Assembly: GCA_918797485.1 (NCBI GenBank)
Contig: CAKKNE010000006.1
Coordinates: forward strand, 1,798,001-1,862,000
Length of the DNA stretch: 64,000 nucleotides
Direction: 5' to 3'
DNA from: Pelagomonas calceolata
Lineage: Eukaryota
Part shown: positions 1,089-64,000 of the stretch, in pieces
Position numbering within the stretch: the first letter of the stretch is position 1
Layout of the letters: each line of letters opens with the position of its first letter
Made by a program: the position numbers and the translations under genes
Notes under the pieces: model-generated
The model's input: only the letters and a program-made list of their open reading frames with translations
Told to the model about the DNA's origin: nothing
Databases searched by the model: none

Positions 1089-1132
1089 TACCTACGGTAC
1101 TTGCTGGTACCGTAGGTACCGCAGTACCAGTA
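1089..1132. promoter_or_regulatory. GTAC/CTACG palindromic motif cluster upstream of CYFIP
   Basis: tacctacggtac...ggtaccgtaggtacc, about 75-120 bp before ATG 1207; the same motif precedes other genes. Confidence 0.55.
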
Positions 1133-1206: not shown

Positions 1207-4200
1207 ATGGATCAGCGATTGAGTGCAATCTCTGACCTGGGAAAGATATGGGTGACCGAGGCACATGTTCTTTCGATGTACTCGATGGTCGAGCATGGCC
1301 CAAAAATTCAGTCCCATGCTACCGGATTAGAGCTAGCAATGCTGTCCGGTACAAATTCTATCCAATTCCAGGATCATATCGGCCTACAGACAGAACTTGC
1401 TGAAGAGACTATCGCGACCGCAGGGATGGAGGCATTAGTCGTGGAAGGATTAGAACACATTAAGATGTTGTACACATTCAGGAGTGTGGGACGCGCAGTG
1501 CCAGTGGTAAATAATTTGAGTATAGAGAATAAGTACAAGTTGGACCTGGAGACGTTTCAAGTGCTGACTCCACAAATCGAGAAGATCAAACGCTTTATGG
1601 AATTTCAGGAGAGATGCATCGCAATGCTTTTGCAAAGCATGCAGGACCTTGCGATCAAACAGGTCCGCGGGAATAATACTGACCGCCACTACAATGCAAT
1701 TACAAAGTTAATGGATCTACTTCAAAAATTAGACAACCTCAAAGACATTAAAGCCTCACTGACAACTGATTTCTCTCGTTACAACCGTGTGTTGCAAGTA
1801 TTGCGAATGGACTTGCCTAATGGAGATAGTCTTGCCCGGGAGAAGCACAAACTGCAACTATTTTTATCTAACTTCAAATATTCAAACTCGCTTATCCTTA
1901 ATAATTTAAGAGACGCCTTGAAGCGAATTCCCAATCATGAACTCGTGCTGATAGATATTCTTCAACAAAATGTCGAGTTTATCGAGAATGGCCGCTATGT
2001 GCTTCTAGACGAGAAGTACCGGTTAGTACGGTCATTGCCGCGGCTTATGCTGCTAATTGATGGGGACCTGGGTGATAGCGTAAAAAGTGTGAACGTATTT
2101 AAGGACAGGCGTATAAGTCTCACTCCGCTCCAGTCTATTTTTAGAGCCTATCCAGTTGTTCCAGAGTGTGGGGACATGTCGATGACCATGCTTATTATCC
2201 TTCAGCGATCCCCCCATTGGGATGCTAGTATGGAGATAAGTTGGGGCGGCAACGCTGACCGGAGAATTGTCGCTCATTACTCACTACCGTCTCAGTGGAG
2301 CAGAATCAAGTTGCAGCACCAAGAATATATGCCGTACTTGGCGCAAACACTAACTGAGGTAGCAACTTATCTCTTCAAGAAAGACACTGCCACTGCAAAA
2401 TATGCAGCCTTTGTGTCGAAGATGGTATTCGATGGCTTTAAGCTGTTGCAGTCCTGGACCTGTGCCGTGCTCGAGTCCTACCATTGGAAGCTAACACATC
2501 CCTGCGCCGCAGCTATCATTACTAAGTTAGATAAGCAATCAGATCACCCCTATGAGCTTGCAATTCGATACAACTATTCTCCACGGGAACTTGGGGTTCT
2601 TGTGGACATAATCTCGATGATCAAATCGCTGACCTCAATGCTGACTCAAGCGGAGGCTCATGTCGCCCCCTACATCCGACTTCATATCCACCACAAAATA
2701 CAGCAATTTTCAGCAGGAGGGCTAGTACCTCCGTTGCATCGTGCGCATAAGCGAAAACGCGCAATAATCAATCCCCTTCTAAAACTACGACGCTTAGTCA
2801 GCGACTGGCCCAAAAATATTGAGCCAATCACGGACTATATATATTACTCCAGACAGGATGGCAGAGTTGAACCTACACACACAGCCCGTGTTGTTGGTCC
2901 AACATTTACACAGCTTCGACTTTTGCGGACCATGGTGCGCGCCATGTATGATCCGAGAAATCAGCTCCGTGTTCAATTTTTTTCCAAGAAGGACTTAGAG
3001 AAAGAAGATTTGCAGCTTATGGATTATTTCTACTGCGAGTCATTGTGCTTTCAATATTTACTCAACTATACAGGCACCTTAACCTCAAACTCCGACCTGG
3101 GCGACCTTTGGTATCGGGAGTTTTACCTTGAACTATCTGGGGAGGTACAATTTGCAATTGAACTTTCACTTGCATGGATTCTCGCGGAGCATGTAATTAC
3201 AGACCAGCACAAGTCGATGCCTCTGGTTGAAAATATCTTGTATACACTAGACACCTACAATGACGCAGCTCACCGGAGCATAAGTGTTCTTTCCCAGCGC
3301 TTCCTGTACGATGAGATAGAGGCAGAAGTTAATTTAATCTTCGACCAAATTGTCTTTCTGGTGTCCGACCATGTGTACTCCTATTACACAAAAATGGTGG
3401 GATTGAGGCACGTTGATGCACCACACCACGAACGTTTGCATCCAACTCTAAAGTGCGCTGATGTGCCTGCTGCTCAGAGGTATCACGTGCCAATATCACA
3501 GCGAAATACTCACGTCCTTGGCCGGATTATTGACCTTAACTTTTTAATCGCGCATCACGTCAACGGGAAGTTTTATGATGACCTTGACTACTGTGCGAAG
3601 AAACTTGAAGCAAGTGATTTATCTCAAGTGTTGGACTACCAAAAAGCCATTCGTGTCGTGCGTGAGACCCACGAATTACTCGACGAGCATCTTGAACTAG
3701 ATCCATTCGTTAAAATCATTACCACAGTAGATGAAGCTGTGGGACCAACAGCGTTTGCAGGAAGAGCCTTAATGCATATTCTCGCATGCCTGGTGACTGA
3801 CGTCTTCCCAAATTACTCTTACAATGGGTTTACAAGAAGATTTGTGATATCATCACTTGCGGATATTCCCCGACGTAGACACCCAAACCCCAGCTATGAT
3901 CATTCCACCTTTTGCGCCCCACCCAAGCACGTCTGCGAAAATGCAACTAAGCTTCATAGGAGCTTCATAGGAATGGTTCATATTGAGGCAATTATATGCA
4001 CTCTCGGGGTTGTTGGGATACCCTTACTTACAAAAAGTCTATTGCAATTCGTCAAAGAACAACTCGAGAATACCCTTACTTATCTTTACGCAATTATCAA
4101 AGGATTTCCGCCATGGAACTATAACATGATGTATGGACCCACCACTTGCTTCAGACACTTAGAGGCAGTACTACAAAATTTCGTTCATGCGGGTGTGGAC

Positions 4201-6549: not shown

Positions 6550-7003
6550 AGTATAGGGAAAATGTATACTTTATGTCCCATTCTGACGAATGAGCCATAA
6601 AATATACTTTTTCCATTTTTTAGAAATCCGACATAAAAACCATCCCCCCTTTTTTACCAACTAATAAAAAATATGTCAAAAAAACTTCAAGTTGACTCCG
6701 AGTCGGAACTGACATAAAAATCGCCAAATATTTTACCGTTGGCATTAGTAGTATAGACGAAACGTATAGTATTAGTCCCCCGCCTAACGGCGTGGAACGA
6801 ATTCCCTACATTTCGTGGGGAGGGACATATAGTATACGTTCTTTTTTTGACTCGGACATATTTTTTATTAGCCTGAGTTAGTTCAAGTTGCCAGTGGAAA
6901 AAAAGGGGGGATGGTTTTTATGTCGGATTTCTAAAAAATGGAAAAAGTATATTTTATGGCTCATCCGAAGGATGGGAAATAAAGTATACATTTTCCCTAT
7001 ACT
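6550..7003. mobile_element. MITE / non-autonomous DNA transposon with long terminal inverted repeats
   Basis: 6550-6684 is the reverse complement of 6842-7003 apart from short insertions (agtatagggaaaatgtatac ... gtatacattttccctatact); TATA lies outside both GGG/CCC ends. Confidence 0.85.
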
Positions 7004-7162
7004 ACTCGTCTTGCATCAATGCTGCCCGTGGCAATCCCAAGCCCGGCTAAACATCCGCATTTCGCCAAAAGAGTCTCTGTTGCACGACTTATGCGGGCTG
7101 TGCCCCAGCCCCCGCCAGCAGTTCAGCACCATCCTTGTGGAAACTCAACTCGCCCGCCGAGA

Positions 7163-8450
7163 TTATTTCGCCAATTTTGGTCTTCTGGCCTCGTCACAGG
7201 AATCCATGGTGGCAGAGAGATCCTCTATGTTTTCCTGCAGCAGCGACGATAGACCCTTAGCAGAAGGCGATGGGTAGGGGCGTGAGGACGCGACTTTCCA
7301 TAGATATCTGAGAAACGGAGGGTGGTAAGGGTCTTTTTCGTCGTCGGCATCGCCCAAGTCAATGCCTTGTGTAGTGTCATTTCCATCGAGCGCGCCTAAA
7401 ATTTGCATGTCGTTGATACTCAGCGCCCCGGCGCATGCTATCTCGTGCCGCGCGGCGGGCGTGTATGCGTGCAGCGGGTCTCGAACCCAGGAATCTGGTG
7501 TTACAACCTGCGCGAGTTGTCGACTACGAGACATCATCCATGAAGCCCTTTCTTTCCCCGAGCAGCCGCCGATGGTGTACCGCCAGCGAGCCCCAGGTGC
7601 CAAGCGTCTGATCGATGGTGCGCCGGCTGCGACGGGCGGCGCAAGATGACCATGCCAGACGAGCGCCTCGGAACTTGCGCGGCGCGCAGCTGTCGCGTCG
7701 CCGTTGCGAGCGAGCGTATGGAGCCGCTCAACGTCGGCGGCGAGACCTGCGGGATATAGTCGCGGCCGACCATAGTAATGGCGCAGGCGGTGGCGATTGC
7801 GTGCGATGCGAAGCCTGTGCGCATAATTGATCAAAGCAGATTGCCGCGACGGACGCGATGGTACGCGAGTGGGTCGCAACGGTAGCTGAAACTCTGGGGA
7901 CGCGCAAATCGAGGTCGTTCGTCTCGCATCCACGCGGGACTGACTCCGCCTCGGAATCAGTCTCGTCCTCCCAACACCTACATAAGCTCATGACGCCTTA
8001 CTTCGCATCACGACCGGCGGTTGTTCCCAGGGCCGTTCGAGGACAGATTCTTTTCAACTTCAACACGGCCTGGCGCCGCTCGACGGCGCGCCGTGCGCCC
8101 TCTCGGAGTGCCGCTCGCCGCGCGCGCATTTGACAGCACGCGTGCATTGCGATGTCAATTCCGCCGCTGCCTATTGCCGCTACGCTGCTACCGCAAGCCT
8201 TGGGTGCACGTAGGCGCCGCCGCGTATTCCCGATAACTGCTAGTGCCTCGCCTATCGTGACGCGGCGCAGGAGCTTCGCCACGTACACCCGAACTTTATT
8301 CACTGCGCGTACTCGCAGCGTCGCCGCCTCGACCCGGCGCCGCGCATTCGCGCGACGCGATGCGGTGTGCGGCCGATCTGCACCACCACGGCTCAGCCGC
8401 ATTGACGCTGAGACTGACATCTTCGGCGCTTTACTGAGCGCAGAAACTTC
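7163..8450 (-). pseudogene. Degenerate GC-rich reading frame of unknown origin
   Basis: ORFs 7998-8648 and 7728-7991 are in the same frame separated by one TAA, overlapping the 256-aa ORF 7163-7933; no recognisable domain. Confidence 0.25.
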
Positions 8451-9996: not shown

Positions 9997-10304
9997 GTCC
10001 CCCACGAAATGTAGGAAACTCGTTCCACGCCGTTAGGCGTGGGAACTAATTTTATACGTTCAAGTTTCGTCTATACTATTAACGAATATCACTGGCATGA
10101 TCCCCATTGATAGCCAACGGACAAAATATTCAAGTTTTGGCGATTTGTGTATCAGATTTTGACATAATTTTATTAGTTTGTAAGAAAAGGGGGGATGGTT
10201 TTTATGTCGGATTTCAAAAAAAATGGACATGTATATTTTATGGCTCATCCGTCAGCCTGAGGATCATGGCCCACTGGCAGGGAGGACATAAAGTATACAT
10301 TCCC
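9997..10304 (-). mobile_element. Inverted partial copy of the 6550-7003 MITE
   Basis: Reverse complement of 6556-6826 (cccacgaaatgtagg...ttccacgccgttaggcg...ggggggatggtttttatgtcggatttc...aaagtatacatt). Confidence 0.85.
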
Positions 10305-10634
10305 CCCCCCCGTGCAATCTGAGTCACGGTCAGGGCTGGCGGCCCGAACCACATATCGCAGACTTACTTAGGAGGCATAATACTGTCCCTGGGGGCCAGG
10401 CCGTAAATACGCGACTGATTGAGACGCGGCCTGGAAGTGGGTCGCGGGACTTCAACTTGACTCGGGATTCTCTTTTGCTACATTGTGTTGTAAAATGCTG
10501 TGCGCGTGTGCCTTTTGTCCTCTGCCGGTGATTTGAGTTTCCCTCAGGCAAAAATAGGTATTCTAAAGTTCTGATCCCATTCCACTCAATTTAATCAGCA
10601 GGTCCTTGTCAATTCTATTCTACTCTATTATAAA

Positions 10635-12069: not shown

Positions 12070-13341
12070 GCGACGATTCCTCCCTAAGAAAGGGAAAGCA
12101 AGCTTACCACATGTTTTGGCCGGAATACCGCCCAGTGAATAAGTATACCACGCTTTCTCTCATCATATTACCGCGGTATTATGATATTGTACCATGGTAT
12201 CTATCCAACCTAAACTAACGTGGTGCTGATGTGCTTATGCTAAGGGTGCGATCTAGACCTCCCCGGGGGGGGGGGTCCGGAGCCAATGTGGTGGTACGCT
12301 CGGGCCGGTCTGCGCGATCGGTCTGCGGTATCGGTCTGTGGTATGATCACTGGCATGATCATGATCATGATCCGCCCGGCCCGGGGCCGACTCGGATCAT
12401 GATCAGTCCGAGTCTGAGCCTCAAATCGGTCACACGCCCGGCCCGGGGCCGGCACCTCCGATAAAGTGAACTTACTTTCGTTCACTCCGGTGTTTTTACG
12501 GCGACTACCTAACGCCGGGCTTGATCCAACTTGGACACTAAGTGCCAGTGAAATACGGCCGGCCGGTGCTACTAGCGGCCTGAGTATAACGTGCTGAGAG
12601 GCGAGAGTAACGTAGCCACAGTTTTTAGCTAGGGGAGTTTTTAGCTCACTGCGCCCCGGGCCGCCTCCCAAAAACCGAACAAGCTCGTATAGTTATTCGA
12701 GGTTACTGACCGGGATAGTTACCTCGGGCCGGCCCGGGATCTTTCTCCGGGTGGACTCGGTTGCGTCACGGTAGGTCAATAGGATAGGACTCGGACCAGA
12801 GGCGTGGTTCACAGGCACTGGCAAATCTAGTAACCGCTTGGGGCTCGACAGCTTGTACCAACTGGCAAATTGAACTCAGGCTTGCCAATGCCAGTGAAAA
12901 AAAAAGCCCCGGGCCAGGTCACCGGCCCGGGTGAGCAACCGGTTGGAAGCTCGGGCTCAACTTGAATCCGCTCGCAGCTGAGCCGCCGCCGGCGGGCTAA
13001 CTGTCCGCCGGATTTGACCTTCAGCAGGCGGCGTTGTTGCCAGTGATCTCAGGCTCCGAAGCAAGCCCGAGCGGGAGGGGCATATACTAGGATTCCGGCC
13101 GAGTCTAACTTGAAGTATCCCGTAGAAGTATCCCATGGACGAGATATGATGGCAAACTCCCAGACGTTCCTTTCGGAGTACGCTGGCTAGCTATGACTAC
13201 ATAGCAGGGAGGGGCGGAAGGGAGTGGTGCTTTTAAAACTACTAGAAGTAGAAGCGACGCTGATCTCACGCCTTTCTTGGTCTAATCACCCAGGGCCGTC
13301 GTCGAGGGAAGGCGATACCGGTATTTCGTGCGCCGGGGCAG

Positions 13342-13847: not shown

Positions 13848-14120
13848 GTCAGCGACCTGGCGATTTTATTACCGCTATGTTACAGTTTAGCCACTAGGAC
13901 TCCACCTCGATATTTTCGTATAGTTGAATTTAGCGACCGGAAAGGGGGTGGGTCGAATGTTGATGTTGTACTCTGACGCCCGGGCCGGCCGCTCGCCCAC
14001 GCCAGCATCTACCCCCGTCACACCCGGCGCGGCAGGCCCATCCTACTCGACTCGGATGTCCGGCGTGCGACCGATACAGGTAGATAGATATATGTGTATC
14101 CCTGTGTTTATTTTATTTTA

Positions 14121-14203
14121 TACCTACGGGTACCGTAGGTAGTACCTACGGTACCGTACCGTAGGTAGGTACCTACGGTACCGTAGGTACCGTAGGACCT
14201 ACG
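14121..14203. promoter_or_regulatory. GTAC/CTACG palindromic motif cluster in the RPS13/cullin divergent promoter
   Basis: Perfect 24-bp palindrome ggtacctacggtaccgtaggtacc at 14168-14191; the cluster ends about 25 bp before the cullin ATG. Confidence 0.6.
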
Positions 14204-14228
14204 CTATTATTCCCGCGATTCCCGCGCC

Positions 14229-16850
14229 ATGAGGCGGACAGATCGGGAAGAAACTTTGCTTACCTACGCGACGGAAAAATCTATCGAAACTGGAGAAATC
14301 CCCTTAGAAGAGGTAATTTCAGCATCACCTTAGCATCAAGAAGAAACAATACAGGGATGGGAAAAGCTCAGGGAAAATGGCATTTGTGTTTTGGTCGACA
14401 TACTTCAGGGCAATGCATCCGACAGACGCCCGTTTGGTAATAAAGGCTATGTGTCTCTCTACACAATATCCTATCGAATGTGTTCAAATGCTGGATTGTA
14501 CGATCACTCAAAGGCATTGTATGACAGGACCAAAGATGAAATCGAGCACGTCTTGCAGCACTATGTAGTTCCCGAACTCAACAAAAATAAGTATGCAGAT
14601 GAAGGCAACGCCATACTCAACAAATTCTCACATCACTGGGAGAATCATAAAGTCTTTGTCAAGTGGATGCAACAGCTGTTTAGACATCTTGACAATGGCT
14701 ACATTGCAAATTCTTCAATCTCCACAATTACGTCGGTGGGCTTAAAACTTTTTTTTGATATCGTCTTTGTTCAATTTAAGGCGGAAGTTCGCGAATCTTT
14801 ACTGAATGCAATCGACACAGAGCGCGATGGAATAAATATCGACCAAGATCTACTGCGTTCTTGTGTTGAGGTTTTTCCCGTCATGGGCTTATCTTCGAAG
14901 TGCACTACTTTGAAGACAGTGCAGTCGGCATTGAACACCCAGCCTGATCTTAGTGTCTACGAATCTGATTTAGAAATTTCACTCTTAAAGAGGACCTCGG
15001 ACTACTATGCACGAAAAAGTAGGGTGTGGTTGGAGGACCAAACTACCCCTGAATACTTGACACGGGCAGAGATGGCACTCAAAGCAGAGCGAAACCGAGT
15101 TAAGCGATATCTCCACCCCTCCACTCAGAGTAAGCTACTCTGTGCCTGTGAACAGGAACTTCTACAAAAGTACAAGGGGCCGTTGATCAATCATGATCAA
15201 AGTGGGCTTAGATCTTTGCTAGCTGAGGACAGAAATGAAGACCTAAGGCGCATGTTTAATTTATTCCGACGTCTTGCTGATGGCCTTTCACCGATGGCAT
15301 TAATGACGAAGAAATTTGTACAAAGTGAAGGAAACAAATTGCTTCAGGAACGTCGGGATCTTATTCACTCTCTGAAATCGAAAGGCAGAAAATTAAGCTC
15401 AAATGACCCAGATTTGATCGATCAGCTCATGACGCTGCATAGTAAGATGAGTAGACTTGTCCTTGAGCTCTTCGACAACGAAGCTCAATTTCAGCGCGCA
15501 CTACGAGAAGCGTTCCAGGAAGTCATGAATGCAGATACAACTTCTGATGATTCAAATGTTGAGTTGCTGGTTGTGCACACTGACCGTATTTTAAGTGGGA
15601 AATTGAAATTGGATGAAGAGGAGGTGGAGAATAGATTGGAGCACTGTATTCAACTTTTTCAATTTGTATCAGACAAAGATTTATATGCTGAACTGTATCG
15701 AGAAAGGTTGGCAAAAAGGCTGCTATCAAAGAAATATACCTCTATTCATGCGGAAAAATCAATGATAGTAAAAATGAAAACACAACAAGGAGCTCCGTTC
15801 ACCACGAAGCTAGAGGGAATGGTGAATGATTTTACAGTAGGCTCGTACCAGCTGTCGTTATTTAATTCATTTTCTTTTTTGTCTTAGGAAAAGATATCGA
15901 TCAAACCTGGACCGCGCATTTAAACAAATTAAGAGCTGCAAACTTGCTTGCTAATAGAACGAGAATGGACTTTTCCGTTCAAGTGCTCACTCAAGGATTT
16001 TGGCCCTCACAAAAGCAACGCGACCTGCAATTATCCCATGAGATGAGAGATGCAAAATCTGCCTTTAACACGTGGTACACAGAACGCCACAGTCATCGTG
16101 TGCTATCGTGGGTGTATATTCTTGGAGATGTAGTTGTCAAAGGCAACTTTGGGGGGAGATCATATGACATGACGATGACTACATTTCAGGCCATGGCTCT
16201 GCTTGCCTTTGCTTGCAAGAAAGAAGCGGTTGCCTTTCCTGAGATTTGTGAGCATATGCAGATAGATGAACCGACTGGCAAAAGAGTTCTTCACTCCCTT
16301 GCGTGTGGCAAGTATAAATTGCTAGATAAAACAGGTCATCACAGAACTATAAATTGCAAGACAGACCTGTTTGAATCAAACGCTATATTTTATTCCAAGT
16401 TGAAGCGATTTAAAGTCCAGATGTCAATGCTGGATGGTGATTTTAAGAGAAAAGTCAACGTGGAGATCCAACAGCAGCGTGGGTTTGGTATTGATGCAAC
16501 GTAAGTGATCATCAGCAATACAATATATATTACCTTCTGTGGCTTTGGTTAGGATTGTGCGTATTTTAAAATCTCGCAAAAGGTAAGCTAGGTGGTGTGA
16601 AGAGCGTGATCCCCCCGTTTCCCTCAGGCTTGCCCATCAAGAACTCGTCGGCGAAGTGATCCACCAGATTCAGAACTTTGCGCCCGAGAGTAGGTTGATA
16701 CGACAGCGAGTAGAAGGTCTGATTGAGCGCGAGTGCTAAGATGCCCAGTGTCGAGCTACATGTATTGACCTTTGCAGATCACAAAAATGCACGTCTAGAT
16801 ATTTAAAGAGGGATGATGTGAATCCAAAATATTATATATATTTACCATGA
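14229..16850 (+). CDS. Cullin (CUL1-like); introns 14313-14354, 15841-15887, 16501-16552, 16583-16627, 16733-16798
   Basis: IPLEEGW, DKDLYAELYRERLAKRLL, FTTKLEGMVND, VLTQGFWP, neddylation motif IDATIVRILKSRK, terminal LIEREYLKRD...YIYLP*. Confidence 0.93.
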
Positions 16851-22282: not shown

Positions 22283-22640
22283 CGGCCGGCTCTGCCAAGA
22301 CGTCTAATAGAATTACCCAGACGTCTATCCCGCTGGTAATACTAGGCTAGGAGCCAGCTAGCACAGTACCTTGCTTACTGTACTAGCCTTAGGCTCCCCT
22401 CGGAATTTCCGGCCAACCACAAAGCCAAATTGGCTGTGGTTTGCGCCGGCCCTCAGATTTATTTAGCCCGCCCTCCCTCCCTGTTTGAAGAAGGGGGCCC
22501 CGGTGACGTTTCCTACCTGTCCCCGGGATTGGTTGGCCCGATGGGCGGCAACTGAGCAAAGAATAAATTCCCAACTATTAGTCTGTTGCTATTTCACTAG
22601 CCACTAGGGAGACTAGGGTAAGCTGAATCACGTATTAGTA

Positions 22641-22696
22641 TACCTACGGTACCCACGGTACTGTACAATGTCATACTGACTTGTACCGTAGGTACT
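22641..22696. promoter_or_regulatory. GTAC/CTACG motif cluster in the RPT5/EGF divergent promoter
   Basis: tacctacggtacccacggtac...gtaccgtaggtac ends about 17 bp before ATG 22713. Confidence 0.55.
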
Positions 22697-28666: not shown

Positions 28667-28707
28667 TACCGTACGGTACCGTGGTACCGTAGGTACTACG
28701 CGGTACC
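28667..28707. promoter_or_regulatory. GTAC/CTACG motif cluster upstream of WDR34
   Basis: taccgtacggtaccgtggtaccgtaggtactacgcggtacc, about 30 bp before ATG 28736. Confidence 0.55.
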
Positions 28708-37808: not shown

Positions 37809-37934
37809 GTACCGTAGTACTACGGTACCACCTACCGCAGTACGGTACTTGCTGGTACGGTACCGCAGTAGGTACCAAGTATGCATCTTAAGGTACCTAC
37901 GGTACCGTAGATAGCCTGAGGTACCTACGGTACT
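37809..37934. promoter_or_regulatory. GTAC/CTACG motif cluster upstream of the glycosyltransferase
   Basis: Many gtac/ctacggtacc copies, including ggtacctacggtaccgtag, about 75-200 bp before the minus-strand ATG. Confidence 0.6.
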
Positions 37935-41522: not shown

Positions 41523-41582
41523 GTACCTACTGCGGTACGGCGACGGTACCGTGGGTCGGTACCTACGGTACCTACGAGGTAG
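41523..41582. promoter_or_regulatory. GTAC/CTACG motif cluster upstream of the kinesin
   Basis: ggtaccgtgggtcggtacctacggtacctacgaggtagg. Confidence 0.55.
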
Positions 41583-42504
41583 GTGAATATACACACACCG
41601 GTGTCGGTCCTACCGGGCCGAGCTTTTGGTCGCCTCAAAAGAGGTATGAGGTCTTCTGGACGTCTGTCGGATGGTAGGGTGATACTACAGTGGCCGCGGC
41701 GGTCACCAGCGGGCCGTGACCGTGATGCGGGTGAGTGAGTTTCAAGGGCCAAGTTGTTGATTTTTTTTTACGACTCGGCGGACTCGGAAATTCCGAGTCA
41801 ACTGTCAGTGCGGCCAATGCGGGTCACTGGCACTACTAGCCTAAGCCTGAGGGGATTATAATATAGCCTTCCGAGTCGCTTGAACTTGCCAGTGAAGTCA
41901 CGGTTGGCCAATCAATTCAAGTTAGTACTAGTAAACCTACGCTGTCCAATCAGGAACGACTTGAGGCGACGGCCGGTGAACATTGCCACTGTTCGGCACT
42001 TCCAGTCTCCGCCGGGGGGCGAAAGCAGCACACTTCGCCATATGCATGGTATCTAGTTCGCACTTGAAAGCCGCAGTTTCACCCGCCCATCATGGCGCAC
42101 CCCGGGGCCTGCACCTAACTCCTCGTAGATACCTCCAGCCCAACACGCGAGTCCTTGCCTGGCCGCTTGGGCTGCTGGACTTTGAACAGCATATCACAGA
42201 GCGCGCCTGCTCTCACGCGTCGCAGAGATGGCGTCACGGTCGAGGCGCCGCTGGACTGCCATGGGCCCATCGCCCCAACGGGCTGCGTCCCGCGGGCAGC
42301 AAGCGCTGCAATAGTTTGCCATGGAAATTGCCAGGGCGGGGCGCCAAGATGGGCGAAAACACCAATTGTCTTGCCAAGGTTGTGTCTACTAATTAACAGT
42401 CTAGTAGCTAGCCTGAATCATCTGCCCTTAGGCATACCGCATGCGTCAAAAACAACAGAGAGCAAGAGTCGAGCCATTGATACGCTACCGCAGAGGGTAG
42501 GGCG

Positions 42505-47212: not shown

Positions 47213-50203
47213 ATGGCTGTCCTGCTTGAGGTGACCCATCCAGTGCTCCGATTTACATCCGACTTCCTTGAGCGCACCCCAAACAGAGCTGTTCGTGTAT
47301 ACGCGCGTGCATTCCTGGCGAGTGGCCTGGAGACGCTCGAGCCCTGGGAAAGCGGCACACCCTACATCAAAGAAGATACTCCGAACATAAGCGAGGCCAC
47401 TATAGAGGTAGTAAAAGAGTCGGATGGCGCAGAAGGTGTCGCCACAGCGAAGATCAATTCACTAAAATATCGAAGCTTTGGGGCTGAAATCAAAAATATT
47501 GACGAGGCATCAGTTTCCGAACTGCTCTGTAAAACTGCTGTCGTGGAGCTATGGCTTGCCACCGGAGGGATTGCCGACGATAAAGTGGATTTGCACATTG
47601 GTTGTGCGAGGCTACCACTAGGAGCAGCACTTGCGACAAACCAGCTGCATGCAGATATAACTGTGGCTCTTAGCTCCACGTGCGTCAGCCAAACTGTTGA
47701 CCCCTCAGCTTCGATCCTCCACGATGCTGGACGATCGTCAAAGGTGAATCTATGTCTATCTGCGTCAAACAAGTTGTTTTCGTTCATGGTGGGCGGAAGA
47801 GTGCTGACATTTGGCAATGGACATATCGAGAATATGCCTGTTGAGTGGATGACTACCACAATTTCACAACCAAACGAAGTTAAGCTCGCCATTAGGCTAC
47901 AACAGCGAACGGAACATACAGGTGCAGGTGGTGTTGCGAATGGCCTTTCCGCTGTCGTGGGACCACATGCGACAATTTCAGGTGGCGTGCCCAAACAACT
48001 AGATCGTCCAATTGCAGAGCATCGGAACAAAGATACTGCGACACCAAGCAACATCTGCCGTCTCGAATGGGCTGCTGACCTAGATTTACCGGTGGCGCTC
48101 TTTGTGACTGCCAAGACCCTGCTCGATGTTGCGTTCAACCCAAATAAATGGGTGTTTGTCCTTGAGCTGCAGCAACATGACACAACTGAAGCGAGAGTTA
48201 CGGCAGTTTCATCCGTAGATGCACTGATGGGTTCATCAATGGTCAAAGCGTCGTTTTTTGCCACCGAGGCTGGTGCTGGACAAAAAGTGTTTGCTGCGGT
48301 ACAATCTCCCCAAGAAAAATCTACTACCTCCGCCCGTGAGTGTACCATTGCAACAGCAACAGCTGCAATTGAATGTAGTATCACTGGCTCTACAATAATT
48401 TCCAGTTCTACTTCGGACACCTGGAAAGGCACCAATCCTGCTGAAGAACTAATACACGATTCTAGACTCTCCGATTGCGTTGCGCCAAGACGCGTGTCGT
48501 GGAAGAGGAGACGTGTTGACGCATACGTTGAGCTTCACCAAGAGGTTAACAAAATTTTTTCAAGCATCTTGATCAAGCATGATTCTCTCCAAAATCAGAA
48601 CTGTGCCGCAACATCTAGTACAGGGACATTGCACCGCCAAATGAAAGCAGGCCTCGGTCAGAGCACTGCTTTTCACAGCTTCCGCCTTGGTCTTACCCCC
48701 TGTCTTCAGCGTGTAGTTCGCAAATGGCACCCAATACAGCCTACAAATATCGCAACTGAAGAAGCTGCTGTTAGCGAGTGCTATACGCACATTATGGACC
48801 TTGTTACATTGTTCCAAGAAGGTGCAGAGCCAGGACGATCTTCCAGAAAATGTAGCCTCGCACGAGCTTATGATGCTGCGACCAATAGTCTATGGGGCGT
48901 AGCTGCTACCGAACACAAGACCCGACTTAGCCGGGCGATGGTAGAATCATCGAACCAGACCGCCATTGCCAATGGATGGTTTGATCTTGCTAAATCAGTG
49001 CTTCTGTCCTGCAATATAAACTCAAATAATATTCCAAGGACCACATACACGCAGCTTAACGTGGCGAAACAAGCACTCAGCGAGTGCCTGGCGTGCGGTA
49101 GTACAGATTCAAGAGATGCAGCCGTGCGCCTGCAAGGTGCTGTGCTACTCGAAGAAGGAAGTCTCGATGATTCCGAAGCAATATTTTCGGCGCGCGCGCT
49201 ATCAGGCACTAATAACGCAATCGATGCAGCATTTCTCTGTGTCATTGCCGACATGCGCGAAGATGGCCTTAAGGCCAAGCGTGCTGCAACTTGTGCAGCA
49301 GGCGCCAAAGTATCGCCCGATCCCGGTGTGCTTCGTGCGATATGTGCCCTAGATGATGCATCTAACTACCTAATGACTTTCGGCCTGGCCAAATCCGCAG
49401 CTTCAGCTCTCGCGATTGCTGATCGTGCTCTTGCGTTGGCGTATAAACACAACTCTATGCTCACTTCGTGGGTAGGGTCACCGCAGATTGCAGCCCATCG
49501 ACGTGTTCTCCACGCACGCCTCAGCGTCGACACCAGGACTGCTGTGCAGCTAGCGCATTCTGCAGTTAGGGCTTGCAAAACCATTTTTACGTTGACAGCA
49601 CTTGGCGACTTGCTCTGTATGGCAAATGACGTAGCCGGGGCAGTTGAACCATACGCTGATGCATTAGTGAGGCATGCGGAGCGCTTTCCGCACGCAAAGA
49701 CGCCATTGGACTTATGCGTCAAACATGCACGCTGTCTCCTTCGGACTAATCAAAATTGTGCTGCGCGGGATACATACGTCACTGTGGCAGAGGAGCTACA
49801 GGATTCGTCGCTTTGGCTCGGCGCAGGCACTGTGGCACTCCGCCTGGGTGCATTAACCTCAACTGACCGCCATCTACGTCGCGCAACAGTCCGTTCACCG
49901 CACAGTGCGCAGCCTTATGGCCTGCTTATGCTGAGCCATCTCACACATGATGGGAATGCTACCTGTTGTGCAGGAAGTCTTCTTGATGTTTCAGTAAACT
50001 TTGGTCTTAACGACCGTGGTCTCCTCCGGGAGCTCGGAAATGCCTACTTTCAGCTCGGACATTACACTATTGCCGAAACCTTGCTTCGTCGCGCAGTAGC
50101 CGCCGAGTTCAACAGGGGTGCTCATTCACACGCCCTCAAGCGCCTTACTGACGTCCGAGCAGCCCGGGTCGTGGCACGAGAGGCTCGCTACGCTCCAGTC
50201 TGA
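47213..50203 (+). CDS. TPR-containing protein, CFAP70/TTC18-like (divergent), intronless
   Basis: 996-aa ORF; AFHSFRLGL...RVVRK and C-terminal ARDTY...SLWLGAGTVALRLG resemble the CFAP70 layout as I recall it. Confidence 0.6.
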   Translation: MAVLLEVTHPVLRFTSDFLERTPNRAVRVYARAFLASGLETLEPWESGTPYIKEDTPNISEATIEVVKESDGAEGVATAKINSLKYRSFGAEIKNIDEASVSELLCKTAVVELWLATGGIADDKVDLHIGCARLPLGAALATNQLHADITVALSSTCVSQTVDPSASILHDAGRSSKVNLCLSASNKLFSFMVGGRVLTFGNGHIENMPVEWMTTTISQPNEVKLAIRLQQRTEHTGAGGVANGLSAVVGPHATISGGVPKQLDRPIAEHRNKDTATPSNICRLEWAADLDLPVALFVTAKTLLDVAFNPNKWVFVLELQQHDTTEARVTAVSSVDALMGSSMVKASFFATEAGAGQKVFAAVQSPQEKSTTSARECTIATATAAIECSITGSTIISSSTSDTWKGTNPAEELIHDSRLSDCVAPRRVSWKRRRVDAYVELHQEVNKIFSSILIKHDSLQNQNCAATSSTGTLHRQMKAGLGQSTAFHSFRLGLTPCLQRVVRKWHPIQPTNIATEEAAVSECYTHIMDLVTLFQEGAEPGRSSRKCSLARAYDAATNSLWGVAATEHKTRLSRAMVESSNQTAIANGWFDLAKSVLLSCNINSNNIPRTTYTQLNVAKQALSECLACGSTDSRDAAVRLQGAVLLEEGSLDDSEAIFSARALSGTNNAIDAAFLCVIADMREDGLKAKRAATCAAGAKVSPDPGVLRAICALDDASNYLMTFGLAKSAASALAIADRALALAYKHNSMLTSWVGSPQIAAHRRVLHARLSVDTRTAVQLAHSAVRACKTIFTLTALGDLLCMANDVAGAVEPYADALVRHAERFPHAKTPLDLCVKHARCLLRTNQNCAARDTYVTVAEELQDSSLWLGAGTVALRLGALTSTDRHLRRATVRSPHSAQPYGLLMLSHLTHDGNATCCAGSLLDVSVNFGLNDRGLLRELGNAYFQLGHYTIAETLLRRAVAAEFNRGAHSHALKRLTDVRAARVVAREARYAPV

Positions 50204-51179: not shown

Positions 51180-51598
51180 TTGACGGCGGCCCGAGTCGAC
51201 CCTACTATACTCCCTACCCCATATCCTACTACCCCCACTACCTCATACTACTCCCCACCTACTTTATGGCCGGCCTTCAGAATAATCGTGGACGAAAGCG
51301 CCGCGCCGTGGCCGTCGGTTTCAAATTGTTGACGGCGGCCCCTACTGCCCCCATATCCTACTACCCCCACTACCTCACTACTACTCCCCACCTACTTCAT
51401 GGCCGGCCTTCAGAATAATCGTGGACGAAAGCGCCGCGCTGGACGAAAGCGCCGCGCCGTGGCCGTCGGTTTCAAATTGTTGACGGCGGCCCCTACTATA
51501 CTTCCTACCCCATATCCTACTACCCCCACTACCTCATACTACTCCCCACCTACTTTATGGCCGGCCTTCAGAATAATCGTGGACGAAAGCGCCGCGCC
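51180..51598. repeat. Tandem minisatellite, about 3 units of ~120-150 bp
   Basis: ccccatatcctactacccccactacctca...atggccggccttcagaataatcgtggacgaaagcgccgcgc x3. Confidence 0.92.
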
Positions 51599-51923
51599 CG
51601 GGCGAGACCTCAAATGACCAAATTCGGCCGGTGACGTCGGCAGCCTCTCCCTCCCTGGCTGAAGCACGCAAGAAGAGAACCCTCGGATGCGTATGCGGGT
51701 GCCGGGGAGATGCAAGATGTTGGGCTATTTGGTGCGGGTTTTCTATGATTACTCTAGCCCTACACGGGCCAGCCTTGGACTGGGGACATATGCGCTGCGT
51801 CCTCAGAGAGATATAGCCCACGGGGAACGGGCGTCTTGTAAGCCACTAGGTCCCACAGCTGGCGCAATGCGGCCGTGCTTCTCAGATTAGGTGCCGTCAT
51901 TGTCCTCATCTGAGAGCAGAACT

Positions 51924-54462: not shown

Positions 54463-55409
54463 TTGAGCATCAGCACAACGATTGAAGTATCATCTGGTGG
54501 ATCCGGTGATGGTATTTCTTTTTTTTTGAGGCCTAAACCGGCTTGAACAGCGGATACCTCGCACTGTGTCATTGGATTGATGGAATTCTGGTGACAGCCC
54601 CAAGATTACCCATCTGCCAGAACGGAATGCTGAGTTCGAGTCCGGATCTCTACCCAGGTTGCTCAACGCAATTAAAATAATAAGAGGAGAAGATGCATCA
54701 GAATCCCGCACTTCTAGTTCAGGTTATCTACTACCTATGATGACCAGTCTGTGGAGATTCAATTTGCCTCGAGAGCCTCTGACTCAGTGAGGCCAGAATG
54801 CAAGCCCTGGACCTCTTTCAAGGCTGAGCAGTTGACTAAGGCCACCTGATGGTTTGCCTGAGTGCAGCGAACGGTTACAGACGGCAGTGCACATGGCCAT
54901 CTCACTGACAGATGCCAGTGGTCCCATGCTTAGCGTCCGAGTCACGGCCGGCGATCACGGCCGGCGATCACACGGGGAAGTCACTAAAAAATCAATCAGA
55001 CCAAAACTTGAAAGTCGACCATTGGCACCCTACCTCCGTCCCATCCTGACGGATCATAAATGGGGTAACAAAATTCGATTTTTGAAATCTCGGGCCGACC
55101 GTGACTCCGAGTCCGAGTCCTGAGTCGGAGCCTGAGACTCGGAATTGTACCCCCAGGCCTGAACTAGAAGTGAATACCTTTCATTCTATCTCCTCATTCC
55201 CTAAGATTTGAGCCTACACAGTTTTTCTATTGACTTTGCCTCTAGTCCGACTTCTTATCCCGACAGGCGCCTCATAAGTACGTAGGTATGCTAGGTATGC
55301 CTCATCCCTACGGTATCTAGCCACTCCGCTGCACGCGTGCTTATGCTGGGGATTGGGGACTAGAGCCCCGTGAGAGTCGCCCGCAGCCTCGCCACGGAAC
55401 CCGCTACTT

Positions 55410-58256
55410 ATGGCGCCGCGAGATAATGATATGCGCCAAAGACTGATCCATTCCCTGCGCGTCCGATCTCAGTCGCTCGAATCGTTGTTACTAAGCTTGC
55501 AAAGGAGTAGAGCTGACCTTCAATGCCCGACGGCAATGCAAGAGTGTGCTTATTGTCGCGGTTCACACGCGGTTGGAAGTTATACTCGCTGCGATCTGGA
55601 TACATCGAGCGATAGCCCCGATCGTTCCCGATGCTGGATAGAGTTGCAGCCTTGTCATCGTTTGAAAGAATTTGGAAGCTCACATATTCGTTCTTCAGCG
55701 TCACAAATTGATCCATCTAACCCATCACTCAATGCTAGTATGTGGAGAAATGCTGAGATCCCAGACGCAAATACTCGCACTATTGCCCTTGATTATATTC
55801 ACGAGGAAATCAAGAGTGTGCACAGCATTGGTCTCTGTGAATTAAGAATGCGCAACTTAGCCACGAAAGTCCTGACTATCATCAGGAGCTGGTTGGCGCG
55901 GAAACGATTTCAAAAGCTTATAGATATGAACGTGGCCATTAAACAATTACAGTGCAGGGAAATATTAAAGGCCGTATCTCAGCCTTGTGTCCGCTTTTGT
56001 GAGCTGGACCGAAGTATCACTAGAATCAGACGCCGATATTCACGGAAGTTTCTGTATACGTGCTGGCTTGCGCTTGGAACGGAGTTACATGAATCATCCT
56101 ATTCCGGTGACAGGGGGCACCGATATAACAAGACCAAGGTCCCACCTAATCAAGTAATCTGCTCAAAGATTCTTGCTAAAAAGAAAAGTCTATTCAAAAA
56201 GTGGCGCTCGTTGGTGTTCTCACAAACCAACTTATGTGGCTATCCGGAATTGGCCGACACTAAATATCTGGCCTATCAGACTTCTGTTGAGCCTCGATGT
56301 AGTATCGACTCGGTAGCTGATCGTGTTGCTCAGATGGCGAGCTTGGTATGCAGAGCCATGCATTTTACTGAAATATCTTTAGCTGAGGTCGCTCGTAATC
56401 TAGCCATTGCCAGGCGCTGTTTGAGTGTTGATACTGGTTTCTTGAAGAACTCTTTTGTGTCGTGGGCTGGATGGGTCAAAAGTTTGTCTGAAGGCCGTTT
56501 GATACTAAGGGTTCCTTTAACAGCACCGGCTCAGGGAACAAAAGCGTCATTGGAAACACGCTTCAGGGCCCCTCATGACTTCCAAACAGCGGCTAGGATA
56601 TCACGCTCCTTTCAGTTACTTAGATATACCGATGCCTGGCGCTCACGCGCCGCCCTTTTGGGTAGTATCACTAAAAAACAACGGATGTTACTTACAGATC
56701 ATCTTCGTCTTCAATTGTCAGCTTGGAATATTTATGCAGCTCAGCTCAAAGCAGCACGTCAGGTGGCTCTTGATCGATGGTGCGCACACGTTGCAAGAGA
56801 AACTTCCGGTCCTCTGCGAGCATGGTACCTCTGGGCAAATATGCGAAGAACACGCCACCAAGATTCTAACCGCCTAGTTGCCATGTTTGCTCGTCTAAAA
56901 TGCCGACACAGTGCAGCGACAGCATTGCGCGCCTGGAGACATGCCGCTCAGTTTAATCATTTTGAGGCCCGATACACACGCAGGGAACTTATTGCGGCGC
57001 TTTCTGAACAGAAAGGTCATATCCGACGATTAGAAAAATGTGTAGATGACCATTATATTGTTCGTGGAGAACTCGAACATGTGGTAAAAGATGCACATGA
57101 GCGTGCAGCAAGGCTTGCGCGACTGTTGCCTGACCGCGATGCTAAGTGTAAACAGCTTGAAGAGAATCTTCAAACTGTGGAAGTGCGTGTCGCCTCGGCT
57201 CAGCGTTATGTCTCCGCTGTGGAGGTTGTCCGCTCTGCACTCACTCAAAGCATATTACAGATGCAACCAGGAGTTGGATTTATAGACAGAGACCTGGCTA
57301 CGTTTGCACACGACCATGGTATTAGACTTGAAGTGGAGATGATCCATCCCAACATGGGGTTTTGTCAGAACGTCCTAAGCCCTCCCCCAACTGTATGTTG
57401 TAAATGTACTAACGCAAACGCATCGACTGGTACCCTTCATCTTGCGCCAGAGAACGCTGGTAATTCAACGGCACCATTGGAACCTCAAGATGATAAAGTT
57501 CCACATGGAATGGTGTTAATTTGCCCTCCGAATAGGTCGGGAGGAATTTTGCTGTGCCGACATGAGGGAGACGACTTGCATTCATCGACTGAAAGAAGTG
57601 TCATGTCGTCCGACAGCACCGATGTCATCAAAGTAGAACTTGCAGCGCGCGTAGGTTGGCTCGTAAATTTGACACGTCAATCCTCTCCTTTGGTTGATTT
57701 CCGTCGATTGTCCCATATAGGTGGCGCGCCCTTAACTACCAGTCACGAGGCTAGTCAAGAAATCAGTCATGACACTACAGGACTGTTTAATGTGCCCAGA
57801 AAACTGATGCATGAAGCCGCACTCCTCCTTATACATACCTTCCGAGAGATGCAAGGAATCTTTGAGTTTTTGCGTGAAGGAAATACTTCAGCACTCTCTT
57901 CTCGTTTGCTGGCCTCATGGGGCAAGTTCTGTGCTCTCACAATGCGAAAGCCCGTGAGAGAGAGGAGAAAAATAACAACTAGTGCATATACTTGGGCAGA
58001 CTTGACGTGGCAGCTAAATGGACAAAGGCAGCACGGAGAACAGAATACGTCCCCAACTTTCGAAGTTCAGACCGGTACATCGCATTATCATTTGAAAGTA
58101 TTGCATGTTCCCCTCTACAGCGGTCGTATGCGATGGACTCGTTGCAACGACATCACCAAACGGACGCCCCCCCAAGCTCGCCCATTGCCAGTGGATTTTT
58201 TTTTGGGGGCTGGGGCCCGGGGGGAAATCCGGGGGGCAGGGGAGAGGGATATTTAA
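55410..58256 (+). CDS. Uncharacterised protein with IQ-like motif, Trp-spaced (Sfi1-like) repeats and coiled coil; 3' end probably spliced
   Basis: 948-aa ORF; IIRSWLARKRF; FKKWR, FVSW, DAWR, LSAWN, LRAWY, LRAWR. Confidence 0.65.
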   Translation: MAPRDNDMRQRLIHSLRVRSQSLESLLLSLQRSRADLQCPTAMQECAYCRGSHAVGSYTRCDLDTSSDSPDRSRCWIELQPCHRLKEFGSSHIRSSASQIDPSNPSLNASMWRNAEIPDANTRTIALDYIHEEIKSVHSIGLCELRMRNLATKVLTIIRSWLARKRFQKLIDMNVAIKQLQCREILKAVSQPCVRFCELDRSITRIRRRYSRKFLYTCWLALGTELHESSYSGDRGHRYNKTKVPPNQVICSKILAKKKSLFKKWRSLVFSQTNLCGYPELADTKYLAYQTSVEPRCSIDSVADRVAQMASLVCRAMHFTEISLAEVARNLAIARRCLSVDTGFLKNSFVSWAGWVKSLSEGRLILRVPLTAPAQGTKASLETRFRAPHDFQTAARISRSFQLLRYTDAWRSRAALLGSITKKQRMLLTDHLRLQLSAWNIYAAQLKAARQVALDRWCAHVARETSGPLRAWYLWANMRRTRHQDSNRLVAMFARLKCRHSAATALRAWRHAAQFNHFEARYTRRELIAALSEQKGHIRRLEKCVDDHYIVRGELEHVVKDAHERAARLARLLPDRDAKCKQLEENLQTVEVRVASAQRYVSAVEVVRSALTQSILQMQPGVGFIDRDLATFAHDHGIRLEVEMIHPNMGFCQNVLSPPPTVCCKCTNANASTGTLHLAPENAGNSTAPLEPQDDKVPHGMVLICPPNRSGGILLCRHEGDDLHSSTERSVMSSDSTDVIKVELAARVGWLVNLTRQSSPLVDFRRLSHIGGAPLTTSHEASQEISHDTTGLFNVPRKLMHEAALLLIHTFREMQGIFEFLREGNTSALSSRLLASWGKFCALTMRKPVRERRKITTSAYTWADLTWQLNGQRQHGEQNTSPTFEVQTGTSHYHLKVLHVPLYSGRMRWTRCNDITKRTPPQARPLPVDFFLGAGARGEIRGAGERDI

Positions 58257-58967: not shown

Positions 58968-59034
58968 GCACGGTCACGGTAGGTAGAGTACCTACGGTGC
59001 CGTAGGTACCGTAGGTACAATGCCTACCGGTACT
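58968..59034. promoter_or_regulatory. GTAC/CTACG motif cluster upstream of DNAAF5
   Basis: gtacctacggtgccgtaggtaccgtaggtac. Confidence 0.55.
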
Positions 59035-63123: not shown

Positions 63124-64000
63124 CGGTTACCAGTACTAAGTCCCGGCGGTTTCAGCCCCGGGCCTGACCCGAAACCAAGGTAGTCCGACCAAAACCAAAT
63201 TAATTTGAGTTCCCGAAAAGAAGCTAAGTGCTACTCGATTTACGTCCCTGCTTCAAGTTCAGGCTCCGAGTCCCGAGCCCTGGCCCGGGACCGGGCCGCT
63301 GACCACTGACGCGGCTAGGTGCCTTTGCGACGTATATTCAATTTTAAGTTGTTCCGAGTCACGGTTTCTCGGAGCGGAGGAGCCACCGTGACGGTCGTAG
63401 ACAACTTGAATGCCAGTGAATGCACTTGCACGGAGTCCGAGTCCGTATATGCCGACTGGGTCAACGTGCTCTATGACTGCATGCTACGATGTGGGGCCGC
63501 AATGATCAACGATGTGCCCGGCCCGGGGGGATTTTCTTAACGCTAGTTTCCTGCACAACCCCTGTCCTACTAGCCCGGGCGACGAGCATGACGGGGGGGG
63601 AGCGACAGGATAGGGGGCCCGTCGCGCTCGACTCCGACTAGTAGAGGGCCAACCCGCTGCCCATCGCTTGGACCCCCGCCGTCGGAGATTGATTTTGGCA
63701 CCCTGGTACTGTAGGCCTCCTCGGATCCCCCGGCGAGTTGTGACCGATCACTTGCTTGTTCATTTTAAACCCTTACTTGTTCATTTAAAATATCTCGCGC
63801 GCTCCTGAGAGCTTTTAGAGGCCTGCAGCTTGATCTGCACATGCCGCGACATCTAAAGGTGAACGCGGCATGAACCTTAACGGGGAGCCCGCGACGACAA
63901 GATTGTCTGGGTTGATGAAGTCTGTCGTACTTTGCACGACGGGACTACCGCCCGGAGAGCGAGAGGAGATATGCGAAATGGCTCGCGCAATGGGAGCGGC

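Follow-up and report, generated by a model that had tools for sequence, protein, structure and literature searches.

In the genome of Pelagomonas calceolata, the divergent genes for RPS13 and a cullin are separated by an array of short, seemingly scrambled words, and the question raised by this locus is whether such arrays are promoter elements or the record of something that inserted there. A preliminary description of the window (the whole 64-kb stretch of P. calceolata DNA analyzed here) had noted scrambled arrays upstream of seven genes: those for CYFIP, cullin, an EGF-domain protein, WDR34, GT8, kinesin, and DNAAF5. Our search recovers 14 exact words that fall into 7 clusters, identical to the 7 clusters named there (Table 1), while the weaker traces mentioned at two further places turn out to be related minor words. 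The counts given below cover the window and the loci found outside it.

With a GC content of about 50%, the window probably sits in the low-GC, centromeric trough of a P. calceolata chromosome, since the genome averages 63% GC and each chromosome has one trough of 52% GC that is taken as centromeric (PMC9481584). The window cullin is 100% identical to the proteins of a cluster that includes P. calceolata CAH0379346. Start codons are the ATGs read from the translations; three of them are tentative, and database proteins back the cullin start alone. Among the window ORFs, Pfam supports CYFIP, cullin, kinesin, and DNAAF5, the EGF match is marginal, the GT8 match lies under its cut-off, and WDR34 is backed at the level of a WD40 protein. 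At its start (1–320), the window has a tandem repeat of 99 bp and, after it, degenerate telomere-like hexamers; it also contains a tandem repeat of 158 bp whose purine-pyrimidine tracts are strand-biased (51200–51603) as well as two long intronless ORFs of about 998 and 960 codons (47213–50203 and 55410–58256), both without a Pfam match.

Table 1. Coordinates of the word arrays and associated features in the window.
Feature	Position	Strand	Remarks
Main array	14121..14206		Between divergent RPS13 and cullin; words of both orientations, joined by common TAs; outermost words degenerate
Unit word F	14170..14180	+	11 bases: TA, 7-base core, TA
Reverse word R	14179..14189	-	Reverse complement of F; one TA common to F and R
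Perfect 24-bp palindrome	14168..14191		F word joined to R word
Nested pair	14152..14171		R word inside the internal TA of a second R word
Cullin start codon	14229..14231	+	Agrees with the N-terminus of P0001 and P0043
RPS13 start codon	13845..13847	-	About 275 bp away from the array
CYFIP upstream cluster	1089..1132		Two main words; six (four more) in the L107 allele
EGF-domain gene upstream cluster	22641..22694		
WD40 gene upstream cluster	28667..28705		Two single-base indels in the L021 allele
GT8-like gene (minus strand) upstream cluster	37809..37932		Minor words common to the CYFIP cluster
Kinesin gene (minus strand) upstream cluster	41523..41583		
DNAAF5 upstream cluster	58968..59027		Start tentative
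Minor TA-bounded words only	12146..12200		Ahead of a protein kinase gene whose start is tentative
Degenerate words	55279..55315		Upstream of the 960-codon ORF without Pfam match
Single minor word	42486..42493		19 bp before the Aquarius start; absent from the preliminary description

The unit word and the main array

The arrays are built from a single word, a 7-base core between two TAs, whose core begins with C, ends with G, and is divided 2 + 2 + 3 by an internal TA; 9-base allelic indels show that one insertion is a gain of 9 bases. Exact copies of this 11-base word number 14 in the window, against 0.01 expected under an order-2 Markov model. When the window and the non-redundant loci described below are taken together, the word is found 363 times with TA as the bounding dinucleotide and 0 to 6 times with each of the other 15. 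Single-base variants are scarce (at most 14 vs 363), symmetric forms of the core are rare (8 sites and 1 site vs 363 words), and cores of 2 and 3 bases between TA sites are present too. The perfect 24-bp palindrome pointed out previously is indeed present and is a by-product of the junction between an F and an R word. From the last whole word it is 40 bp to the cullin ATG, and about 23 bp from the degenerate end of the array.

The stretch 14110–14230 has a predicted fold of −38.2 kcal/mol (z = −7.9), which we set aside as evidence of function because a strong fold follows from self-complementary words, and an Rfam search gave hairpin matches alone, far under threshold. We also rejected a 3-base target duplication, hinted at by the window, since varied bases follow the isolated words, which leaves TA as the duplication; a mirror rule with 3-base targets showed no enrichment.

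Loci outside the window

A metagenome scan for two adjacent words returned at least 122 loci (numbered with the prefix L), from which 26 were set aside as alleles or overlaps and 3 as probably belonging to other organisms, so that 93 non-redundant loci were kept besides the window. L021 and L107 are alleles of window promoters with 97–98% identity, and the remaining loci would belong to Pelagomonas or close kin, judging from their shared vocabulary and repeats. Of 10 proteins from other loci, 6 were found by exact look-up. The two-word palindrome and two repeat probes found no match in the virus collection. Prokaryote genomes gave 6 matches, three in MAG contigs with the same vocabulary and three lone ones in isolate genomes; the prokaryote MAG contigs L123, L124, and L127 carry the same words (L127 also the dispersed repeat described below) and look like contaminating Pelagomonas DNA. 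In L031, words lie upstream of each of two divergent 406-codon ORFs (621–1838 and 2737–3954), possibly an inverted duplication. The DNA just before the EGF-gene cluster (window 22346–22628) is 93% identical to parts of L069 (about 6600–6700 and 7032–7319) that stand in another context, and this similarity stops about 13 bp short of the cluster.

Alleles differ by whole words

Comparison of alleles reveals how the arrays change. Cluster indels of at least 3 bp are found in 13 of 23 allele pairs, and indels are much denser within clusters (20 in 1815 columns, 11.0 per kb) than elsewhere (50 in 46917 columns, 1.07 per kb), though the non-cluster columns are partly coding and the 23 pairs are not all independent. 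Sixteen sites, selected in a way that by construction tends to keep at least two words, were compared at the level of single words: the difference consists of whole TA-bounded words at 12 of them, of single-base indels at 1, and of one substitution at 2, and 1 is identical.

The gains take several forms. In L119, a whole word stands about 30 bp from an existing array, and L060 has no word at this site; L094 and L051 have each gained an F word ahead of an R word, without an identical neighbor; L057, L027, and L087 have gained minor words of 10 and 8 bases without an adjacent copy; and some gains in L107 and L070 are plain tandem copies. The TA is duplicated around the insert in the empty/filled alleles L060/L119, L075/L094, L067/L051, L091/L057, and L005/L027, and one internal TA of a dispersed repeat holds the word in L033 and again, in the opposite orientation, in L088. 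Whole words enter older ones at the internal TA (e.g., 14152–14171), and opening and closing half-words match in 15 of 16 runs (permutation p = 0.0008). It is this nesting of whole words inside older ones that gives the arrays their scrambled look. At the outer flanks, G stands ahead of the TA in 184 of 298 cases compared to a background of 32%, and the word itself supplies such a G-TA context; word junctions are of the same orientation in 98 of 162 cases, in a set selected for such pairs. The arrays are real, non-random, and made by insertion, and each event duplicates the TA and adds the fixed core in either orientation, at bare sites as well as beside or within earlier words.

Position relative to genes

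All 7 clusters of the window lie within 200 bp of a start codon, a proximity shared by 203 of the 1336 remaining intergenic TA sites (binomial p = 1.9e-6), and the nearest whole word ends 19–161 bp ahead of the assigned start. Gene bodies make up 62% of the window and hold 0 of the 14 words, which agrees with the absence from coding sequence reported earlier. Whole words within 200 bp are found at 7 of the 16 window starts, while 1 further start (RPS13) shares the cullin array at a distance of about 290 bp, 3 have minor words only, and 5 have no word of any kind within 300 bp; the word is no general mark of gene starts.

Loci of at least 1 kb show the same placement, with 77 of 79 clusters outside long ORFs. 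Of these 77, 29 have an ATG-starting ORF of at least 225 codons that begins no more than 200 bp downstream, and 2 have a stop at most 200 bp away; for all non-coding TA sites, the corresponding shares are 13% and 10%. The 48 clusters without such a start are explained in part by contig ends, short first exons, and crude ORF calling. Among 17 clusters listed as non-selecting (L047 among them is in fact selecting), 8 are near a start and 0 near a stop. The distance between cluster and ATG ranges from 8 to 339 bp with a median of 73.5 (36 clusters), and 14 words are isolated single copies. Orientation independence, as first described, is borne out by the presence of both orientations in the window and by a ratio of 61 : 61 relative to the gene. 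Neighbors of the clusters include tubulins, CFAP43, Gcd10, and a ThiF protein, and many are housekeeping or cytoskeletal genes. Their GC3 is low in 29 of 52 loci and high in 23 of 52; GC troughs make up about 5% of the P. calceolata genome, and trough loci seem over-represented among clusters, to which assembly bias could contribute.

A second vocabulary of 8-mer words

Intergenic DNA throughout the window (e.g., 41780–41930, 55098–55145, and 63250–63445) also contains 8-mer words that follow another rule: a dinucleotide XY, C, the reverse complement of XY, G, and XY again. All ten dinucleotide classes obey this rule, flipped-core controls of the six non-palindromic classes come close to expectation, and 13 of 14 six-base allelic indels fit the rule by eye. 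These 8-mers are found near starts in 15 of 774 cases vs 59 of 774 near stops. By analogy to the hairpin-type footprints of Ac/Ds, which resemble them in carrying a mirrored copy of the target dinucleotide (PMC5873905), they are likely footprints left by an element that duplicates 2 target bases. The mirror rule of such hairpin-type elements (hAT, EnSpm/CMC) does not hold for the promoter word with its 363 TA-bounded copies and 0 to 6 of each other kind.

The two vocabularies are the work of different processes with opposite positional preferences, since both their rules (TA plus 9 bases vs any dinucleotide plus 6) and their positions relative to gene starts differ. Thus, the earlier suggestion of a promoter-specific vocabulary laid down by insertion stands, given the allelic word gains, the nesting, and the 5' bias, whereas its assignment to the same process as the 8-mers fails on their different rule and their scarcity near starts. 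The window further contains a palindromic MITE-like element (6550–7003 and 10000–10306, including a half copy about 3 kb apart), and a related 197-bp piece in L008 (about 1293–1490), absent from the allele L066, sits inside an 8-mer word.

Candidate parent element and transposase

One insert has ends from which the core could be assembled: a TA-flanked stretch of about 155 bp in L111 (about 356–510), lacking in the allele L058, whose first five and last five bases overlap by three to give the exact 7-base core. Its left end is found again in L067; L127, L029, L034, L042, and L081 have its right end, and small TA-bounded additions accompany most of these ends. The modules of L111 have poor inverted repeats, are also found without those ends, run into longer shared sequence in L026, L062, L088, and L067 as well as in L017 and L049, and break off at a number of different internal TA positions (L009, L024, and L033); modules of this type may be passengers trapped at hot spots. 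Many clusters adjoin, at fixed TA sites, a dispersed mosaic repeat of about 150–250 bp that is variable among alleles (L111, L009, L026, L029, L033, L067, L082, and L088); this repeat is a candidate non-autonomous parent or a passenger.

In the window and the 122 loci, which including overlaps amount to about 0.49 Mb and to a minor fraction of the 32 Mb genome, we found no element with good terminal inverted repeats beginning like the core. Transposase families had no match among 34 window ORFs or among 82 mostly cluster-flanking ORFs (E up to 1e-10), and the allele comparisons contained no excision event. In the rows listed from the published P. calceolata annotation, there is one Tc1-like DDE transposase, Pca_3p03790 (PF13358) (PMC9481584).

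Origin of the arrays

On balance, we think it likely that the arrays are stacked excision footprints of a Tc1/mariner-like, TA-targeting cut-and-paste transposon that favors promoter DNA and whose parent copy is putative. Such an element would insert at a TA in accessible promoter DNA, duplicate this TA, and later excise, and repair of the two overhangs would then leave its end bases in place. The core would stem from two slightly different ends of five terminal bases each, overlapping by three complementary bases, and the dominance of a single product would be explained by 5-base overhangs that pair via these three bases and are filled in without trimming. Every scar would offer new TA sites with the preferred preceding G, and a used site would thus attract further hits. 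Minor words could be other repair products or come from other element families. Some tandem copies probably arise by slippage, to which the same-orientation junctions may also be due in part. We would ascribe the promoter bias to targeting and not to selection, since insertions weeded out by selection should survive at 3' ends at least as well as at 5' ends. Points against footprints include the dominant core, with 7 asymmetric bases compared to the canonical 2–4, the rarity of symmetric forms, and the negative searches for a parent and a transposase described above. The arrays work like Tc1/mariner footprints yet fall outside the canonical footprint class.

Repair alone, without a transposon, could give rise to comparable arrays if breaks in open promoter DNA copied a neighboring word (by templated insertion, template switching, or slippage) and arrays thus propagated themselves from chance seeds. 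The self-complementary and hypervariable nature of the arrays (compare the fold of 14110–14230), the location of most allelic changes inside or near an existing array (the L119 insertion lies about 30 bp off one), and the plain tandem copies in L107 and L070 are all consistent with this explanation. We nevertheless regard it as unlikely, because local copying leaves unexplained why a single vocabulary is shared and why the same word with exact TA borders is found at unlinked loci, including 14 isolated copies; furthermore, minor words enter without an adjacent copy, nesting preserves the whole-word register, and single-base variants are rare (at most 14 vs 363). The footprint process and local copying during repair can act together. 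The idea that the words are binding sites of a promoter factor or nucleosome-excluding elements, kept near starts by selection, draws on the 5' bias inside (7/7) and outside the window (29/77 vs 2/77 at stops), on orientation independence, and on the many housekeeping or cytoskeletal genes among the neighbors. Yet the ATG distance varies between 8 and 339 bp (median 73.5), whole words within 200 bp are found at fewer than half of the window starts (7 of 16), and 5 of 16 starts are bare altogether. Alleles differ by whole words at 12 of 16 sites, nesting breaks words, words also lie inside and beside dispersed repeats, and selection alone cannot account for the TA duplication. A promoter element as their origin is therefore improbable, and for the core promoter of the preliminary description, we find no positive support in the sequence evidence to which this judgment is confined.

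The earlier description had itself named ends of a transposon family as a finding that would overturn it, and the arrays might be the ends or subterminal repeats of one gene-adjacent family. A multi-copy stretch (shared with at least 4 other loci) does touch the cluster in 28 of 93 non-redundant loci, and the repeat is present, absent, or replaced between alleles in L111/L058, L034/L120, and L091/L057. However, the remaining 65 loci and all 7 window clusters have no multi-copy neighbor, the array persists without the repeat (L058) and the repeat without an array (L049, L017, and L062), and arrays vary among copies of the repeat, which makes this reading highly improbable.

Comparison to known systems

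A close likeness to the proposed footprints is offered by Sleeping Beauty and other Tc1/mariner elements, whose canonical footprints are flanked by TA and made of 2–4 end bases (PMC6943129). Both consist of a short fixed core between TAs in either orientation, but the Pelagomonas core has 7 bases, is asymmetric, contains an internal TA, and is stacked and nested, and its parent is putative. Similar to Stowaway/Osmar5 in grasses, where 1–4 end bases are kept on each side within the TA duplication and one TA is hit repeatedly, including by insertion beside an earlier footprint, end bases would be retained at re-used sites (PMC1925063). In the Stowaway/Osmar5 case, the footprints vary, belong to a single intron site, and have known MITE parents (PMC1925063), whereas Pelagomonas shows one stereotyped product at many promoters with at least 10 events per site. 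The preference for gene starts over gene ends is shared with transposons that target Pol II initiation, though for those it was seen in new insertions in plants and animals and in Pelagomonas in scars alone, placed relative to the ATG (PMC7337890).

Among the matches listed in literature searches on pelagophyte transposon footprints, mariner footprints at promoters, a diatom promoter motif, and the exact words, we found no description of these arrays, and the words "motif" and "transposable" are absent from the main text of the P. calceolata genome paper (PMC9481584). The genome has been called repeat-poor, with about 6% repeats (bioRxiv 2024.10.30.620910), and its low-GC regions free of transposon build-up (PMC9481584).

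Significance

Repeat annotation is likely to miss scars as short as 9 bases, which motif finders would probably call promoter elements. The words may have been co-opted as promoter elements at a later stage. A bolder proposal, which we consider distinctly unlikely as a whole, is that a mariner-like transposase cuts unusually deep, homes in on Pol II start regions, and re-targets its own scars, and that these scars have become a functional, tunable part of the promoter—keeping DNA open or binding a factor—with the number of words governing how expression differs between wild strains. Natural alleles of the CYFIP promoter with two vs six words make an effect of scars on expression directly testable, and two oppositely placed scar vocabularies would yield a sequence-only map of the reach of each enzyme. 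If the footprint explanation is true, a very abundant marine picoalga carries in its promoters the record of heavy and ongoing cut-and-paste traffic, despite a genome described as repeat-poor.
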